Assembly (NCBI RefSeq): GCF_988243305.1
Contig: NZ_OZ547136.1
Strand: one strand, 5' to 3'
DNA: 64,000 nucleotides
In this document: positions 10,301-19,938 of the stretch, one piece after another
How positions within the stretch are numbered: position 1 is the stretch's first letter
Layout: every line of letters starts with the position of its first letter
Made by a program: the position numbers and the translations under genes
The notes under the pieces: model-generated
Seen by the model: only the letters and a program-made list of their open reading frames with translations
The model's database searches: none
What the model was told of the DNA's origin: nothing

Positions 10301-10776
10301 GATGCTGGGTCCTTATAAACACTCGCCGGGCGACGGTGGTTAGCTTCCATCGCTTTCTCAACTTCTGGCGGCGTATAGTTTTCATCATGTTTCGCCAGCA
10401 CTTCTTTCGCGAGGATATGATTGCCTTTTTCCAGCTCGCCCTGCACTACAACGCCCTGCCCTTCACGGAACAGATCCGGCAAAATGCCTTCGTAAGAAAC
10501 ATCCACTGAGCCTTCAGCATCGTAAATGGTGAAGGTCACTTTCAGCGAATTGGGATCGCGCTGCACGCTACCCGGCATCACCATCCCGCCAACGCGCAGA
10601 CGCTGACCGACTTCCGGCATCTGCTGAGTTTCACGCTTGCCGTAGAGAATTTCCCCCGGCGTATAAAAGAGATCGATATTCGAGCGCAGCGCATACAGCA
10701 CCAGACCGATGGTCAGCGCCAAACCTGCCAACACAGCACAGGCAATCCACAAGCGGTTTTTACGGCGAATATTCAT
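10297..10776 (-). CDS. ccmE: Heme chaperone CcmE
   Basis: 159-aa ORF, N-terminal membrane anchor, 4-nt overlap with neighbours. Confidence 0.93.
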
Positions 10777-10982
10777 GCAGCCTCCTGCTGTTGCGCAGCA
10801 CGTAAACGCGCCTCACGCGCCCGCTGTTGCGCCACACCACGCAGAATTGCGCGATGCTGCATCACCGAGTGCACGACCAAAACCACCAGCGGAATAATGG
10901 TCATCACCACCGCCAGCCAGACAAAAAAGGCGTAACCGCCCATTGCGAAAAATTCATTCCAGGAAGCAAATGCAGGGGTCAT
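10773..10982 (-). CDS. ccmD: Heme exporter protein CcmD
   Basis: 69-aa small membrane protein ORF between ccmE and ccmC. Confidence 0.9.
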
Positions 10983-11716
10983 TTACGGCCTCTTTTCAGT
11001 ATCAGTTCACTCACCCACGGACGGCGTTTTTCCATCAGCAAAATTAAATTACGCATCCGCATCAGCGTCAGCGTGGCAGACAGCAGCAAGAAGCCAAAAA
11101 TCGACCAGCGCAGCGGCGAACGCATCGCCGGATCGATACTTTGCTGCATTCGCGTTGATCCCTGATGCAGGGTGTTCCACCACTCCACGGAGTAATGAAT
11201 AATCGGCAGATTCACCACGCCAATCAGCACCAGGATACCTGCCGCACGGCCCGCCAGACGGCGGTCGTCGAAGGCGTGCCACAGGGCAATTACACCAACA
11301 TACAGAAACAGCAGCACCAGTTCAGAAGTCAGGCGTGCGTCCCATACCCACCAAGTGCCCCACATCGGTTTTCCCCATGCAGAGCCGGTAACCAGGGCAA
11401 TAAAGGTAAACACGGCACCAATGGGGGCCATCGCCGCCACCGCCAGGTTGGCCATTTTCATCTGCCAGACAAGGCCAATAAACGCCGCCACCGCCATTGA
11501 TGCATAAATGCCCATCGACCAGATCGCCGCAGGCACATGCAGGTAGATAATGCGGTAGCTATTTCCCTGCTGATAATCAGCCGGAGCAAAGCCGAATCCC
11601 CAGATCCAGCCAACGGTAAGCACGACCACACTGGCAATTGCCAGCCACGGTATAAACCAGCCACAGATTTGATACAGCCGTGGTGGGATCGCCAGTTGAT
11701 GCAGTGTTTTCCACAT
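10979..11716 (-). CDS. ccmC: Heme exporter protein CcmC
   Basis: 245-aa product starting MWKTLHQLAIPPRLYQICGW; the ORF track extends 8 codons further upstream (to 11740) and the start is chosen by recognition of CcmC. Confidence 0.9.
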   Translation of the reverse strand: MWKTLHQLAIPPRLYQICGWFIPWLAIASVVVLTVGWIWGFGFAPADYQQGNSYRIIYLHVPAAIWSMGIYASMAVAAFIGLVWQMKMANLAVAAMAPIGAVFTFIALVTGSAWGKPMWGTWWVWDARLTSELVLLFLYVGVIALWHAFDDRRLAGRAAGILVLIGVVNLPIIHYSVEWWNTLHQGSTRMQQSIDPAMRSPLRWSIFGFLLLSATLTLMRMRNLILLMEKRRPWVSELILKRGRK

Positions 11717-11757
11717 AGTTTCGATACCAGACTCGAACAAAAATCAGTAATCCAGCG

Positions 11758-12420
11758 TTATTGAATGCTGATTCGTAACGCTGCCGCCGTCGCAAAAGGA
11801 CTTAATGTCGCGGTGCCTGCCAGCAACGCGCCTAAAATTGCCAGATACCCGTCAACGGGCAAATGCATGGAAGCCGCGTCCATCGCGGCGGTGGCAAAGA
11901 TGAGTAATGGGATAGTCAGCGGTAACACCAGTATGCTGAGCAGCACACCACCGCGCTTAAGTCCCACTGTCAGCGCCACGCCCGGTGCACCGAGAAAGCC
12001 AAGCGTAGGCGTTCCCAGCAGCAGCGTCAGCGCCATCACTTGCCAGCCATAAACATCCATTCCCAGTAGCATTGCTACCAGTGGCGAAAGGACGAGTAAC
12101 GGCAGACCGGTTACCATCCAGTGCGCCATCACCTTCGCCAGCACAACGGCGGGCAAGGGTAACGGCAACAACATCAATTGTTCAAGACTGCCGTCCTGCA
12201 AATCGTCACGGAACAGACGCTCCAGTGCCAGCAAGGATGAAAGCAGCGCAGCAACCCAGATAACGCCCGGTGCAATACGCGCCAGCAGTTGCGGCTCCGG
12301 ACCGATACTGAGCGGAAAAAGGGTAATGACAATCAGGAAGAACCACAGCGGGTTGGCGATTTCGGCGCTGTGGCGAAACGCTACGCGCAGCTCAAGACGG
12401 AAAATGCGCCAGAACATCAT
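11758..12420 (-). CDS. ccmB: Heme exporter permease CcmB
   Basis: 220-aa hydrophobic ORF; overlaps ccmA by 4 nt. Confidence 0.92.
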
Positions 12421-13040
12421 GCGGCCCTCGTTTGCGTCAGTGAAATGCGGCGAATTTTACTTTCAGCAACGTTGAGCGGCTGGTGGGTAGTCAGAATCAC
12501 AATCCCCCCCTGCTCCGTATGCTGTGCCATACGCTGGGTCAGACGATCGACGCCGTTAACGTCAATCGCGGTAAAAGGCTCGTCGAGGATCCATAACGTG
12601 GCACGGGTCAGCCACAGACGCGCTAAAGCGACGCGGCGTTGTTGCCCGGCAGAAAGTTGATTTACAGGAATATCTTCGAATCCGGCAAGCCCGGCCTGCG
12701 CCAGGGCTTCCAGACATTGTGCGGTATCGCCATCGCGATGATAAAAGTGCAGATTTTCTAACGCCGTCAGCCGGGTTTTGATCCCCGGCTGATGGCCTAT
12801 CCATAACAGGTTTTGATGGTAGCTGTCGCGTACCTGATGCAAGGGCTGCCCTTGCCAGAGAACCTCGCCTGCGTCAGGGCGAGACAACCCCGTCAGCAAA
12901 CGGAGAAGCGTTGTCTTCCCCGCGCCGTTGCTACCGGTGATTTGTACCCATTCTCCTGCGTTCAGCGTAAATGATAAACCACTAAATAAGGTTCGTTCAT
13001 CCCGCTCACAAAGTAACTCTCTGGCTTCAAGCATACCCAC
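12417..13040 (-). CDS. ccmA: Heme exporter ATP-binding protein CcmA
   Basis: 207-aa ORF with Walker [10 protein letters not shown] and ABC signature LSAGQQRR. Confidence 0.93.
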
Positions 13041-13052
13041 GCAATAACCCTG

Positions 13053-13655
13053 TTAAAAACCTGGCTCGACTTCGCGCATATCGGGCAGCTTGTGCGCTAT
13101 CCCTTTATGGCAATCAATACAGGTTTGCCCATCTTTCACCGCCTGGTCATGCATCTTCGCGGCAACCGATTTCTGGGCGGTTGTATCCATATACTCGAAG
13201 TTGTGACAGTTACGGCACTCCTGCGAGTTATTGTCCTTCATGCGCCGCCACTCATTCTGTGCCATCGTCAGGCGATGAGCTTCAAATTTCTGCGGCGTGT
13301 CAATAACGCCAAAAATTTTACCATACAGCTCTTTACTTGCTTTGAGCTTGCGTATCATCTTCGGCACAAACTCGTGCGGAACGTGACAATCCGGACAGGT
13401 CGCACGAACGCCGCTACGGTTGTTGTAGTGCACGGAATCCATGTATTCCTGATACACCGTGTTACGCATTTCGTGGCAGCTAATGCAGAACTCTTCGGTA
13501 TTGGCTTTTTCCATCCCGGTGTTAAAGCCGCCCCAGAAGACGATGCCACCGACAAAACCGATCAACAGCAGCGTCCCCAGCGCCAGACGGCTGGGGGTAC
13601 GCCACCATTTCCACAGGCGCTTAATCAGACCAGGCTTACGGTCAGAATTTCCCAT
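13053..13655 (-). CDS. napC: Periplasmic nitrate reductase tetraheme cytochrome c NapC
   Basis: 200-aa ORF with N-terminal anchor and four CxxCH heme motifs. Confidence 0.93.
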   Translation of the reverse strand: MGNSDRKPGLIKRLWKWWRTPSRLALGTLLLIGFVGGIVFWGGFNTGMEKANTEEFCISCHEMRNTVYQEYMDSVHYNNRSGVRATCPDCHVPHEFVPKMIRKLKASKELYGKIFGVIDTPQKFEAHRLTMAQNEWRRMKDNNSQECRNCHNFEYMDTTAQKSVAAKMHDQAVKDGQTCIDCHKGIAHKLPDMREVEPGF

Positions 13656-13664
13656 AATAACCTC

Positions 13665-14114
13665 TTATTTCCCGTAACCTTTTGATGGGGTAAAGGTATT
13701 CCCCACGATTGGCGCGGTATCGGCCTGCGGTACGTGACATTGCAGACAGAAATAACGACGCGGAGCCACTTCCGCGCCCACTTTGCCGTCGCTGTCCATA
13801 AAGTGAGTAGGACTGATGCGCGGTGCGCCAGTGGTGCGATAGCTTTCGACACCGTGGCACTGCAAGCAGCGGTTGGTATTGGTCGTTACCTGATAACCTT
13901 CAACGCTATGCGGGATCATTGGCGGCTGATTCACATAGTTCAGCGGCATCCGTTCCTGCTCTTTTGGCATCCGAATGGCCCCTTCCTGCGTCCCGGATAC
14001 TTCCGGCGACTGGCTAAAATCGACGCCATTAGCCGCCCAAACCGCGCCGCTCACCACCAGGGCCAGCATCGCCGTCCATTGACACAGCGCTTTCTTCAGG
14101 TCATGGCTTTTCAT
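13665..14114 (-). CDS. napB: Periplasmic nitrate reductase diheme cytochrome c NapB
   Basis: 149-aa product starting [13 protein letters not shown] with signal peptide and CxxCH motifs; start chosen to give the ATGA overlap with napH. Confidence 0.9.
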   Translation of the reverse strand: MKSHDLKKALCQWTAMLALVVSGAVWAANGVDFSQSPEVSGTQEGAIRMPKEQERMPLNYVNQPPMIPHSVEGYQVTTNTNRCLQCHGVESYRTTGAPRISPTHFMDSDGKVGAEVAPRRYFCLQCHVPQADTAPIVGNTFTPSKGYGK

Positions 14115-14974
14115 GATTTCGCTCCCGAACTCCATCGTGTAGTTATTGTAAATACATCCTCAGAACAGACATCCACGCAGCGACCGCACGTCATGCAATC
14201 GCGGCTGGTGACCTGCACCGGGCTTTGTTCATCCAGCACCGGGGCACGTAGCACATGCGGTTCCGGGCAAACATGAAAACAATCCATACAGCGGTTACAT
14301 TTCTGCCGATCGGTGGCCGCAACGGTAATGACACCTTTGCTACCCAGCACGCCATACAGCGCGCCAACCGGACAAATGTGCCCGCACCAGCCGTGTTCAA
14401 CGACCAGTAGATCAAATAAAAACAGCGCGAGAATAAGCAGCGCGCCGCTGCCGAATCCCATTACCAGACTGCGCCCCATCAGGGAAACGGGGTTGATCCA
14501 TTCCCAGATGAGCGTGCCGGTTAAGGCCGATCCCAGCAGAATGACTACCAACAGCACGTAGCGAATGTGGCGTGGGATCGTCGCAGACTGATTGAGGTCA
14601 AAGCGCCTGCGTAACCAGTTCGCTAAGTCGGTAATCGGGTTCAGCGGGCAGACCCAGCTGCAAAATAATCGCTTTCCTGCCAGGGCGTAGAGCACGGTGA
14701 TAATTACCGCACCGGTCAACGCCACCGTGGCAGGCAGATGACCGCTGGCAAGACTTTGCAGCGTCATCAGCGGATCGGTCAGCGGAACGGTGTCGAATAA
14801 CAGGCTACTGCTGTAGTTGCCGTGCAAGATCCACACACCAAACCACGGACCGCTCAAAAACATCCCCAGCACGAAGAACTGACAAAGGCGACGTAACACC
14901 AGCCAACGGTGGCTGCGCCACCAGCCTTTTTTCTCCAGCGCCTCGCGCCCGGCGTCACGTTTACGATTTGCCAT
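14111..14974 (-). CDS. napH: Ferredoxin-type membrane protein NapH
   Basis: 287-aa ORF with transmembrane segments and C-terminal 4Fe-4S cysteine clusters. Confidence 0.92.
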
Positions 14975-15656
14975 TGTTCCCCTCCAGCCAGCCGAAGCGG
15001 TAATGGTGACCTAACTCCCCTTTCGCCAGTGACAGCGGTAACACCTTGATTGCCGGTTGTTCCAGCACGCACACTTTTTCGCACTTACCGCAGCCGGTAC
15101 AGGCGTCGCTGTGAACCGTCGGCAGAAAGCGGGCGTGCTTACCGGTACGCGTGTTGCGCTCCAGCTCCAGGGTGATTGCCTCATCAATTTTCGGGCATTC
15201 GCGATAACAAACATCGCAGCGCAGCCCCTGAAAGTTGAGACAGTTTTCCTGGTCCACCAGTACCGCCAGCCCCATCCGCGCGTCGTCGATCGATTCGATC
15301 TCACGATCCAGCGCACCGCTCGGGCACACTTTGGCGCACGGAATGTCCTCACACATTTCGCAAGGAATATCCCGTGCGACAAAATATGGCGTGCCCGCCG
15401 ACAGGCCAGAAGCCAGCGTCGCCAGTTTTAAGGTGTCATAAGGGCAAGCCTGAACACACTGACCGCAACGCACACAGGCACTGGCAAAGGCGTTCTCGTT
15501 TATGGCTCCGGGCGGGCGCAACCGCACGCCAGATGCGCGTGCGGTTTGCTGTTGTAACCCCAGCGCCACACCCACGGCAGCCAGCCCGCCAGCTGTGCGA
15601 ACGACATCGCGCAGAAAGCGGCGGCGACCATTTTGAGGTTTCGCTGACCGGGACAT
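14961..15656 (-). CDS. napG: Ferredoxin-type protein NapG
   Basis: 231-aa ORF with Tat-like N-terminus ([14 protein letters not shown]) and multiple CxxCxxCxxxCP motifs. Confidence 0.92.
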
Positions 15657-15662
15657 AATGGC

Positions 15663-18149
15663 TTACACCTTCTCCAGTTTGACCGCGCACTTCTTGAAGT
15701 CCGTCTCTTTCGAGAGCGGATCGGTCGCATCCAGCGTCAGTTTGTTAACCAGCTGTGCGGCGTCGAAGAACGGCATGTACACCAGGCCCTGCGGCGGACG
15801 GTTACGACCGCGCGTTTCGACAATCGAGATCACTTCGCCACGGCGAGAAACCACTTTCACTTTGTCGCCACGGCGCAGATCGCGCGCTTTCGCATCCAGC
15901 GGGTGAATAAACAGGACCGCTTCCGGGAAGGCGCGGTGCAGTTCCGGCACACGGCGAGTCATACTGCCGGTGTGCCAGTGCTCCAGGACGCGTCCGGTAG
16001 AGAGCCACAGGTCGTACTCTTCATCCGGTGCCTCCGCCGCCGGTTCGAACGGCAGCGCGAAGATCACCGCTTTGCCATCCGGTTTACCGTAGAACTTGTA
16101 GCCTTCGCCCGCTTTCACGTACGGGTCGTTACCTTCGCTGTAACGCCACTGCGTTTCTTTACCGTTCACCACCGGCCAGCGCAGACCGCGCGCTTTGTGG
16201 TAGTCATCGAACGGTGCCAGATCGTGACCGTGACCGCGACCAAACCATGCGTACTCTTCGAACAGCCCTTTTTGCAGATAGAAGCCCAGCTCGCGGGATT
16301 CATCGTTCAGCTGATCTTCCGCCAGTTCGGATACCGGGAATTTGCTCACTTCCGGGGTGGCATACAGAACTTCGTACAGCGTTTTGCCACGCAGTTCCGG
16401 TTTCTTCGCCAGCAGATCTTCCGGCCATACTTCTTCAGTTTTGAAGCGGCGGGAGAACTGGACTAACTGCCAGAGATCCGATTTCGCTTCGCCCGGTGCC
16501 TGTACCTGCTGACGCCAGAACTGAGTACGGCGTTCGGCGTTACCGTAAGCACCCTCTTTTTCTACCCACATTGCGGTCGGCAGGATCAAGTCGGCGGCCA
16601 GCGCACTGACTGTCGGATACGGATCGGAGACGATGATGAAGTTGCGCGGATCGCGCCAGCCCGGCATACGCTCTTCATTGATGTTCGGCCCGGCCTGCAT
16701 GTTGTTGGTACACATGGTCCAGTAAACATTCAGCTTGCCGTCTTTCAGCGCACGGTCTTGTGCTACCGCATGCAGACCGATTTTCGCCGGAATGGTGCCG
16801 CTCGGGATATTCCACTTCTTCTCGCAGATATCACGATGTTTCTCGTTAGTTACCACCATGTCCGCAGGCAGACGGTGAGCAAAGGTGCCCACTTCACGCG
16901 CAGTACCACACGCGGAAGGCTGCCCGGTCAGGGAGAACGGACCGCAACCCGGCTTGGAAATTTTGCCGGTCAGCAGGTGCAGGTTGTAGACCAGGTTGTT
17001 GGCCCATACACCACGGGTATGCTGGTTGAAGCCCATCGTCCAGTAGGAGATGACTTTCTTGTTCGGATCGGCATACAGCTGCGCCAGTTGTTCTAACTGG
17101 TCTTTCGGCACGCCGGTCATTTCGGCAGTTTTTTCCAGCGTATACTCAGCAACGAAGGCTTTGTAATCTTCAAAGCTCATCGGTTCGGAGGCGTCAGAAC
17201 CCGGATTCTTCGCTGCTTTTTCCAGCGGATGGGTCGGACGTAAACCGTAGCCGATGTCCGTCGCCCCTTTGCGCAGGTTAACGTGCTTGCTGAAGAAGTC
17301 CTGATTTATCGCATTGTTTTGAATGATATAGTTGGCGATGTAGTTCAGGATCACCAGGTCAGATTGCGGCGTAAAGATGATGCCGTTATCCGCCAGCTCG
17401 AAGCTACGATGCTGGTAGGTAGAAAGCACCGCCACGGTGACGTTCTGGTTAGAGAGACGACGGTTAGTGATGCGCGACCAGAGGATCGGGTGCATCTCCG
17501 CCATGTTTGCGCCCCACAGCACAAACGCGTCAGCCTGCTCGATGTCGTCATAGCAGCCCATCGGCTCATCCATACCAAAGGTACGCATAAAGCCAACTAC
17601 CGCCGACGCCATACAGTGACGCGCGTTCGGGTCGATGTTGTTCGAACGGAATCCCGCTTTAAACAGCTTGGACGCGGCATAACCTTCCCAGATAGTCCAC
17701 TGACCAGAACCGAACATACCGATCGATTCCGGCCCTTTTTCTTTCAGGGCGGTTTTGAATTTCTCTTCCATCACATCGAAGGCTTGATCCCAGGTGATTG
17801 GGGTAAATTCGCCTTCTTTGTCATATTTACCGTTTTTCATACGCAGAAGCGGCTGCGTCAAACGGTCTTTACCGTACATGATTTTGGGCAGGAAATAGCC
17901 CTTAATGCAGTTCAGACCACGGTTAACCGGTGCGTCCGGGTCGCCCTGACAGGCCACCACACGCCCCTGCTGCGTTCCGACCAGAACGCCGCAACCCGTA
18001 CCGCAGAAACGGCACGGCGCTTTATCCCATTTAATGGCTTCCTGCTGACCAACAACGGCGCGGGCAACGCCCGGCACGCTGAGACCGGCAGCCGCCGCAG
18101 CGGCCGCAACGGCGTTAGCTTTCATAAAGCTACGACGACTGAGTTTCAT
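15663..18149 (-). CDS. napA: Periplasmic nitrate reductase catalytic subunit NapA (molybdoenzyme)
   Basis: 828-aa ORF with twin-arginine signal [31 protein letters not shown] and N-terminal Fe-S cysteine motif. Confidence 0.95.
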
Positions 18150-18409
18150 GGTGTTTCCTCACCTTGCTCTTCCTGCTGGTGATAAACCAGCGACACCGCC
18201 AGCACGCCCTCTACGTTGCGTACTGACTCAATGGTTTGAATCAGCGTTTCGCTGTCTTCTGCTTCCACCACCACAATCAACTGACCGCTCGGCGCGTCGC
18301 TGACAGCAACTTCACAGCCGGGAAAGGCGTTCAGTTGGGTGCTGATGTCTGAAATTCGTTCGCTTTTGGCCTGCACGACCAGGCTGCAAACTTGCCAGTT
18401 AGTGTGCAT
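18146..18409 (-). CDS. napD: NapA chaperone NapD
   Basis: 87-aa ORF overlapping napA start by 4 nt. Confidence 0.9.
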
Positions 18410-18893
18410 GGAGATACTCCGCAGTTATGGCTGATACCGGACAGCTGGCTGCACATGCTCCACATCCGTTGCAAAGTTGGCTATTAAGTTGCGGCTGGTA
18501 GATCCCGGAGAGCGTCGGGCGAAAGATAATTGCCATTGGCTCACAGCTATCCTGACAGCGGCGGCATTCAACTGACTGATACGCCAGGCACGCCTCCCCG
18601 ATGGTGAACAGCAAATCCCAGGCCCTGGTGTGGCGCGGAGAAAATAGCGATTCGGGGCAAGCCTGCGCGCAGGCGTAACAGAAGCTGCACTCGTTATTTT
18701 TGAAATTAACGCTCGGATAGCCACCCGCGCCGCGTTGCAGAATGTTGTTTTCACAAGCATTAATACAGGCGTCGCAGCGAGTGCAATGGGTCAGAAAATG
18801 AGATTCATCACCGGACCAGGGCGGACGGATACCGTTACTGGCTTTGCGCCAGCGACCAGTGAGTATGCCCCGACGGGATGCATCAATCTTCAC
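18399..18893 (-). CDS. napF: Ferredoxin-type protein NapF
   Basis: 164-aa ORF with several 4Fe-4S cysteine motifs; first gene of napFDAGHBC. Confidence 0.92.
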   Translation of the reverse strand: MKIDASRRGILTGRWRKASNGIRPPWSGDESHFLTHCTRCDACINACENNILQRGAGGYPSVNFKNNECSFCYACAQACPESLFSPRHTRAWDLLFTIGEACLAYQSVECRRCQDSCEPMAIIFRPTLSGIYQPQLNSQLCNGCGACAASCPVSAITAEYLHAH

Positions 18894-19006
18894 ATTGACC
18901 TTCCATCATTAACGCGCTCTGAAAATTGAGAGCGACCAAATAAACCGCATAATTAATAAGCCATTTTTATAGCCGCTAAGATATTAAAGGATGTGTCAAA
19001 GATGCA

Positions 19007-19022
19007 TACCCCGATCGGGGTA
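19007..19022 (-). promoter_or_regulatory. NarL/NarP 7-2-7 heptamer pair in the napF promoter region
   Basis: Perfect 16-bp palindrome TACCCCGATCGGGGTA about 115 bp upstream of the napF start codon; matches the NarL/NarP inverted-heptamer architecture. An imperfect FNR-like half-site (..GGATCAA, near 19037-19041) lies just upstream. Confidence 0.7.
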
Positions 19023-19300
19023 AAACCTGTAGCAGGATCAAAAGAGTGGCGGGAAGCGTGGCAAAAACGGGCTTTTGCTCACATTTCAAATGGTTATAAA
19101 CATATTTATATAGCGATTAATTCACCAGAGATATTTATGTCGGTTTGTTCTCTCACCAGAATTTAACACTAAAAGAGCAGGTAAAATTGTCTGAATGTTC
19201 TTTAAGTTATTCATAAAGCAAATTAATAAATCTGATGAATATGTTAACCTTCAGCGACATCATCGGTGAAAACCTATAAATGAAGAAGGAAAGCAAAAAA

Positions 19301-19789
19301 ATGAAGACCATTCTACCTGCAGTATTGTTTGCCGCTTTCGCCACCACTTCCGCCTGGGCGGCAGAAAGCGTCCAGCCACTGGAAAAAATCGCGCCTTATC
19401 CACAAGCTGAAAAAGGCATGAAGCGTCAGGTGATTCAGTTAACCCCGCAAGAAGATGAATCTACCCTGAAAGTAGAACTGTTAATCGGCCAGACGCTGGA
19501 AGTCGATTGCAATTTGCATCGTCTCGGCGGGAAGCTGGAAAGCAAAACGCTGGAAGGCTGGGGCTATGATTATTACGTCTTTGATAAAGTTAGCTCGCCG
19601 GTTTCCACGATGATGGCCTGCCCGGATGGCAAGAAAGAGAAGAAATTTGTCACCGCGTATCTGGGCGATGCCGGAATGCTGCGTTATAACAGCAAGCTGC
19701 CGATCGTGGTGTATACGCCAGACAATGTGGATGTGAAGTACCGCATCTGGAAGGCGGAAGAGAAAATTGACAACGCGGTAGTCCGCTAA
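19301..19789 (+). CDS. eco: Ecotin, periplasmic serine protease inhibitor
   Basis: 162-aa product [44 protein letters not shown]; the ORF track starts 7 codons earlier at 19280. Confidence 0.92.
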
Positions 19790-19823
19790 ACTGCCGTGAA
19801 GTGCTCCACCCCGTAGGTCGGAT

Positions 19824-19932
19824 AAGGCGGTCACGCCGCATCCGACATCCAACGCCCGAGCCGGTTGCCTGATGCGACGCTGACGCGTCTTATCTGCATA
19901 CGCCACATCCGGCATACCATGCCGGATGTGGC
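19824..19932. repeat. REP (repetitive extragenic palindromic) cluster between convergent eco and mqo
   Basis: Three REP-like palindromic units (GTAGGTCGGATAAGGCGGTCACGCCGCATCCGACATC; GCCTGATGCGACGCTGACGCGTCTTATCTGCATAC; GCCACATCCGGCATACCATGCCGGATGTGGC). The last has perfect 14-nt arms and abuts the mqo stop. Confidence 0.8.
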
Positions 19933-19938
19933 ACATCA

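Follow-up and report, generated by a model that had tools for sequence, protein, structure and literature searches.

Background

The nirB, nrfA, narG and fdnG promoters resemble napF in combining both regulator classes, FNR and NarL/NarP, and in responding to the same signals. At these four promoters, the FNR site is located at about -41.5 and the Nar sites lie further upstream. The napF promoter has the opposite order, its FNR site being distal and its NarP site proximal. Sites of the 7-2-7 type have also been reported at nirB, nrfA and fdnG, with napF among the four genes for which such sites are described (PMC2718512).

With respect to the position of the 7-2-7 site, napF can be compared with yeaR and ogt, where 7-2-7 sequences at -43.5 and -44.5, respectively, serve as activator sites (PMC10853779). 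All three promoters have a lone 7-2-7 site abutting the -35 position, from which a regulator dimer acts at about -44. They differ in the regulators employed. NarL activates yeaR and ogt without FNR, whereas napF is activated by NarP and depends on FNR at -64.5, and NarL acts there mostly as an antagonist.

In E. coli K-12, transcription of napF requires FNR and NarP-P, and NarL-P antagonises activation from the same site; a napF fragment spanning -85 to +19 remains NarP-dependent (PMC9262595). The title of Stewart et al. 2003, as cited in that paper, refers to "dual overlapping promoters" of napF. The 7-2-7 site of napF has been placed at -40 to -49 (PMC4549865). Here we describe the corresponding region in a 64-kb stretch of DNA (64,000 nucleotides, hereafter the window) and compare it with K-12, with other E. 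coli genomes and with related genera.

Genomic context of the napF-eco intergenic region

Positions 18894-19300 correspond exactly to the 407-bp gap between two divergent genes. On the minus strand, napF (18399-18893) starts with a GTG at 18893 and is the first gene of napFDAGHBC-ccmABCDEFGH, whose nap genes are those of the periplasmic nitrate reductase. On the plus strand, its neighbour eco, which encodes ecotin (19301-19789), starts at the K-12-annotated ATG at 19301. These two starts bear out the napF-eco divergent control region named in the original prediction.

MG1655 (NC_000913.3) coordinates are obtained by adding 2,284,604 to window coordinates, with no indel across the napF-eco region. 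The window matches MG1655 base for base from 18880 to 19100. This identity with the K-12 napF (aeg-46.5) control region extends over the napF start codon, the leader, both -10 hexamers and the 7-2-7, then over the FNR site and the CRP-like block, and it ends within the ModE site, whose proximal half is included. The gene order is also that of K-12, napFDAGHBC-ccmABCDEFGH with narP downstream. Upstream of 19100 the two sequences diverge, at the ModE spacer base 19101 (G in the window, A in MG1655) and at eight bases within 19119-19157, a patch for which the allele of the window is rare.

When queried with 801 nt surrounding the site, 5421 of the 5426 complete E. coli genomes gave a match, with napF, eco and either yojO or a "hypothetical protein" annotated beneath it. 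We are therefore nearly certain that the stretch is the control region of the E. coli napF operon; the original reading is supported as correct, and the region is one already known.

The nap-ccm unit downstream of this region comprises 15 co-oriented genes (seven nap and eight ccm) on the minus strand, at 6754-18893. All 15 ORF lengths equal those of the MG1655 annotation. The unit is thus intact, as had been proposed, with 15 genes in place of the roughly 19 first counted. The 4-nt overlaps, originally said to run throughout, occur at eight of the 14 junctions (napD/A, napH/B, ccmA/B, ccmC/D, D/E, E/F, F/G and G/H); of the other six, two have longer overlaps (11 nt and 14 nt) and four have gaps, measuring 6, 9, 12 and 41 nt.

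Three further differences from MG1655 were observed in the surroundings. The yejO gene (3161-5752) is an intact 863-aa ORF in the window and is interrupted by IS5 in MG1655. The narP-ccmH gap (6720-6753) measures 34 bp in the window versus 210 bp in MG1655, and the eco-mqo gap (19790-19938) measures 149 bp versus 714 bp. The longer eco-mqo gap of MG1655 is explained by extra 113-bp tandem units (repeated TGTGAAGTGC..CACC, 2400-2980 of the extracted MG1655 locus).

A NarP/NarL-type 7-2-7 palindrome at -44.5

Centred at 19014.5 on the minus strand, the sequence TACCCCG-AT-CGGGGTA (TACCCCGATCGGGGTA, 19007-19022) forms a perfect 16-bp palindrome, in which two inverted heptamers are separated by a spacer of exactly 2 bp. 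It is present as a single copy in the 64-kb window, even when three mismatches are allowed. The heptamer consensus of NarL and NarP, derived from the work of the Stewart and Busby laboratories, is TACYYMT. Both arms of the palindrome, TACCCCG, fit this consensus at six of seven positions and depart from it at position 7, which is G. The description "perfect", given to this heptamer pair in the original prediction, therefore holds for the palindrome and its position, but not for the fit to the consensus. Because of the G at position 7 on both arms, a generic scan with TACYNMT-NN-AKNRGTA, allowing at most one mismatch, missed the napF 7-2-7.

Loose consensus matching is at chance level on its own and not significant: 7-2-7 sites with at most one mismatch per heptamer numbered two in the window, against 3.8 expected from shuffles. 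Perfect 16-bp palindromes were found four times, against 1.05 expected. For a perfect palindrome whose two arms each lie within one mismatch of the heptamer, the calculated expectation is about 0.008 per 64 kb; the one found stands before a nitrate reductase operon and is conserved across genera.

The position of the palindrome agrees with the literature. Its centre lies 31.5-36.5 bp upstream of the invariant -10 bases, corresponding to -44.5 from the P1 start, in agreement with the -40 to -49 of PMC4549865 and with the placement originally expected for nitrate/nitrite control of nap. Together, the sequence and its position support the identification of the palindrome at 19007-19022 as the napF NarL/NarP site of the literature, with protein binding predicted for this DNA. 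On the identical K-12 sequence, binding of both phospho-NarP and phospho-NarL is said to have been found by Darwin and Stewart in 1995 and by Darwin and colleagues in 1998 (both cited in PMC9262595).

An engineered high-affinity NarL site, TACCCCTAAAGGGGTA (PMC4549865), has the same heptamer positions 1-6 as napF on both arms. It differs from napF in its central four bases (TAAA versus GATC) and at position 7, where it carries the consensus T in place of G.

The dyad centre of the palindrome is a GATC sequence (19013-19016), a Dam methylation site. In Citrobacter and Leclercia this GATC is replaced by AATT, GATT or CATT, and it is thus not conserved. An interaction between Dam methylation and NarP/NarL occupancy, which could make nap expression replication-linked or heterogeneous, is a very speculative idea, to which we give little credence.

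A second 7-2-7-like sequence, TACATAAAATGGGGTA, was noted at 5981-5996, 76 bp upstream of the narP ATG (6072). With three mismatches in total it does not stand out from chance (28 sites of this kind against 44 expected). It falls inside the narP leader, for which a length of 150 nt has been reported (PMC9262595).

Promoter elements and the napF leader

The published location of the 7-2-7 at -40 to -49 (PMC4549865) provides the anchor for the transcription start of P1, which we therefore place at an A at position 18970 on the minus strand (19014.5 minus 44.5), giving a 77-nt leader to the napF GTG. The corresponding P1 -10 hexamer, TATCTT (18978-18983, minus strand; -13 to -8), matches at four of six positions and is invariant in all nine sequences aligned. 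A minor, overlapping hexamer assigned to P2, TAATAT (18981-18986, minus strand), lies 3 nt upstream of that of P1. The distinction between P1 and P2, the existence of P2 and the 3-nt separation of their starts reportedly go back to Stewart et al. 2003 (cited in PMC9262595 and PMC10845959). In E. coli MFDS1006657 the P2 hexamer reads TTATAT, and in Citrobacter and Leclercia it reads AAATAT. Among these sequences P2 is not conserved, which would fit with reports that P2 has no known role.

A consensus promoter scan of the region did not call P1, as expected for an activator-dependent promoter. The scan returned one promoter-like match on the plus strand, at 18926-18953, and one chance-level terminator-like hairpin in the leader. 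P1 has no usable -35 element at the standard spacing of 16-18 bp. A TTGACA at 18999-18994 was considered as a -35 element and rejected, given its spacing of 7 or 10 bp to the -10 hexamers and the fact that the hexamer is not conserved. Within its neighbourhood only ACACATCC is conserved, a block occupying 18989-18996 on the minus strand (-26 to -19) in the P1 spacer.

Another conserved block, TGCGGTTT(A/T)TTT.GTCG, is located in the napF leader (18925-18950, minus strand; about +22 to +40). An interaction of ArcZ with napF mRNA has been mentioned from RIL-seq (PMC8139620), and this interaction might involve the leader. A search of the region against Rfam identified no family; the best hit, to a miRNA model with E = 0.84, is meaningless. 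The predicted fold of the leader is likewise ordinary (z = -0.85).

The FNR site

The FNR site TTGATCCTGCTACA, read in the napF sense, occupies 19028-19041 on the minus strand. Its centre at 19034.5 corresponds to -64.5 and lies 20 bp upstream of the 7-2-7 centre. Compared with the FNR consensus TTGAT-N4-ATCAA (PMC10845959), the site matches at seven of ten positions, with a perfect upstream half, TTGAT, and two of five matches in the other half. Motif quality of this kind is common and does not by itself set the site apart from chance: with up to three mismatches allowed, the consensus matched 339 times in the window.

An FNR ChIP-seq peak with its centre at 2301675 (v2 coordinates) has been assigned to napF (PMC3688515). 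In our alignment, TTGATC and its distances to the 7-2-7 and to the -10 hexamer are invariant in all nine sequences from Escherichia, Citrobacter and Leclercia. Assuming a v2-to-v3 offset of about 1976, the peak lies about 13 bp from the centre of TTGATCCTGCTACA. From the conservation and the reported ChIP-seq, not from the motif alone, we conclude that the ATCAA half-site is most probably part of the real napF FNR site. The original prediction had listed the ATCAA at 19037-19041 as a weak FNR candidate; its position, and that wording as a judgement from sequence alone, were sound, but the invariant TTGAT, the fixed spacing and the reported peak indicate that the site was undersold.

A nominally better FNR match, TTGAGAGCGACCAA (18926-18939, two mismatches), was rejected. 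It lies at +32 to +45 in the leader and is not conserved.

ModE operator, CRP-like block and the upstream allele

Further upstream, a ModE-type operator, ATCGCTATATA-AATATG-TTTATAACCAT, was identified at 19090-19117 on the minus strand, with its centre at 19103.5 (-133.5). ModE operators are palindromes of the type CGnTATATA-N6-TATATAnCG. A search with CGNTATATA-N6-TATATANCG, allowing up to three mismatches, had the napF palindrome as its sole match in the window (two mismatches; 0.07 expected). The ModE search had been proposed together with the original prediction, in which this palindrome had gone unnoticed. It is kept in Escherichia and Citrobacter and missing in Leclercia. ModE has been reported to activate napF and IscR to repress it (PMC8139620).

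The P1 start at 18970 bears on all of these elements. The positions -64.5 and -133.5 are reportedly those of the FNR site in Stewart et al. 2003 and of the ModE site in McNicholas & Gunsalus 2002, respectively. A single anchor thus puts three separate elements, namely the -10 hexamer and the FNR and ModE sites, on their reported positions, which we regard as strong internal corroboration.

Between the FNR and ModE sites, the block GAAATGTGAGCAAAAGC (19068-19083, minus strand) is a candidate CRP site centred at about -105.5. Compared with TGTGA-N6-TCACA, one half is perfect (TGTGA, 19083-19079) and the other has three mismatches, a match at chance level. Escherichia and Citrobacter show little or no variation in the block, and it is missing in Leclercia. 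For napF, Stewart et al. 2009 (cited in PMC3688515) reportedly described a CRP site farther upstream than the FNR site. Based on the conservation and on this report, GAAATGTGAGCAAAAGC is probably a CRP site.

The allele of the window at 19100-19180 is identical in seven of 5420 E. coli genomes, and 5077 genomes have 90-95% identity to it, whereas equally long flanking segments are identical in about 4800-4950 genomes. The differences cluster at about 19135-19160, and several lineages each have their own sequence in the same stretch of about 25 nt. Relaxed constraint or recombination could be the cause of this rare upstream allele. An effect of the 19135-19160 allele on ModE-dependent or eco-side regulation is conceivable, although we rate it as a decidedly long shot.

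Conservation and alternative readings of the palindrome

Within E. coli, 4948 of 5421 genomes show 100% identity over the 81-nt core at 18965-19045, which contains the -10 hexamers, the 7-2-7 and the FNR site. The intergenic region of E. coli MFDS1006657 is strongly diverged, with a NapF protein identical to that of K-12. This genome retains the 7-2-7, TTGAT and TATCTT, and its proximal FNR half is changed from CTACA to CAACA.

For comparison across genera, a NapF-based search was run with one genome per species; among the matches listed, only Escherichia, Citrobacter and Leclercia provided orthologues, and Salmonella, Klebsiella, Yersinia and others fell outside this sample. We aligned the 320 nt upstream of napF from nine sequences: the window, MG1655, MFDS1006657, E. 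albertii, four Citrobacter and Leclercia. In this alignment, the invariant columns amount to six of six in the P1 -10 hexamer, 13 of 16 (81%) in the 7-2-7, 64% in the FNR site and 61% in -36 to -14. The corresponding values are 13% in -94 to -72 and 8% far upstream, in -230 to -148. No indels were found between the FNR site and the -10 hexamer. Across genera, heptamer positions 1-6 read TACCYC and position 7 is G, A or C, while the central four bases are GATC, AATT, GATT or CATT. The Leclercia adecarboxylata MAG contains the FNR site, the 7-2-7 and the -10 hexamer and lacks the ModE and CRP-like blocks. In this genome a tRNA 3' end (GGTTCGAATCC...CCA) adjoins the napF upstream region (1194-1250 of the extracted locus).

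The intergenic region is common to napF and eco, and the same sites might also, or instead, control eco or a plus-strand yojO transcript. The promoter-like match recovered by the consensus scan, TTGAGA-16-CATAAT (18926-18953, plus strand), is directed toward yojO and eco. However, matches of this kind are at chance level (one found versus 1.6 expected), 287 bp separate the 7-2-7 from the eco ATG downstream of it, and our literature search did not find nitrate control of eco reported. Furthermore, the fixed geometry of the sites is relative to the napF -10 hexamer. We consider such control very unlikely.

Alternatively, the palindrome could be conserved not for regulator binding but as the code for residues 3-7 (TPIGV) of YojO. 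The yojO small ORF (54 aa; 19002-19166, plus strand), which is annotated over the 7-2-7 in K-12 and in many other genomes, spans the NarP, FNR, CRP-like and ModE sites, and its N-terminal HTPIGV is kept in every sequence examined. Nevertheless, E. coli MFDS1006657 and the four Citrobacter sequences have an ORF of just 16-17 codons, and its ATG is changed to GTG or GAG in Citrobacter, with the 7-2-7 retained in each case. Between the window and K-12, 5 of the last 21 YojO residues differ. Conservation follows the heptamer positions and their fixed spacing to TTGAT and the -10 hexamer, not the yojO codons. The coding explanation is accordingly highly improbable, and these sequence comparisons suggest that yojO is probably not a real conserved gene.

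That the inverted repeat at 19007-19022 arose by chance, or is a hairpin or terminator operating without a regulatory protein, has next to no likelihood: even though perfect palindromes are in excess in the window and loose 7-2-7 matches occur at chance frequency, this palindrome has no loop or T-run and is not terminator-like, it sits at the published napF site position (PMC4549865), the changes across genera are asymmetric and break the palindrome (TACCTC...GGGGTA in E. albertii, central GATT or CATT elsewhere) while the TACCYC/GGGGTA heptamer cores survive, and the Rfam result and the unremarkable leader fold speak against a structural element.

Discussion

The reading we retain is that the palindrome is the NarP/NarL site of the napF promoter. 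The scheme that follows combines the elements, spacing, K-12 identity and conservation found in this DNA with bound proteins and effects that are taken from the literature.

Under anaerobiosis, an FNR dimer would occupy the half-consensus site at -64.5. In the presence of nitrate or nitrite, a phospho-NarP dimer would bind the 7-2-7 at -44.5, just upstream of the -35 position, and FNR and phospho-NarP would jointly recruit RNA polymerase to P1 with its -10 hexamer TATCTT. Phospho-NarL, dominant at high nitrate, would bind the same palindrome as a poor activator, competing with NarP and damping expression. This competition would therefore make nap a low-nitrate system. ModE-molybdate at the -133.5 site may add a molybdenum input, and the CRP site near -105 would probably add a carbon-source input.

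The napF promoter is among the best-characterised anaerobic promoters of E. coli, and the locus serves here as a positive control: as the case of the original prediction shows, a mapped regulator site can be recovered from raw sequence. Strong constraint acts on the 7-2-7, the TTGAT half-site, the P1 -10 hexamer and the spacing between them, as seen among E. coli genomes and also when Escherichia, Citrobacter and Leclercia are compared.
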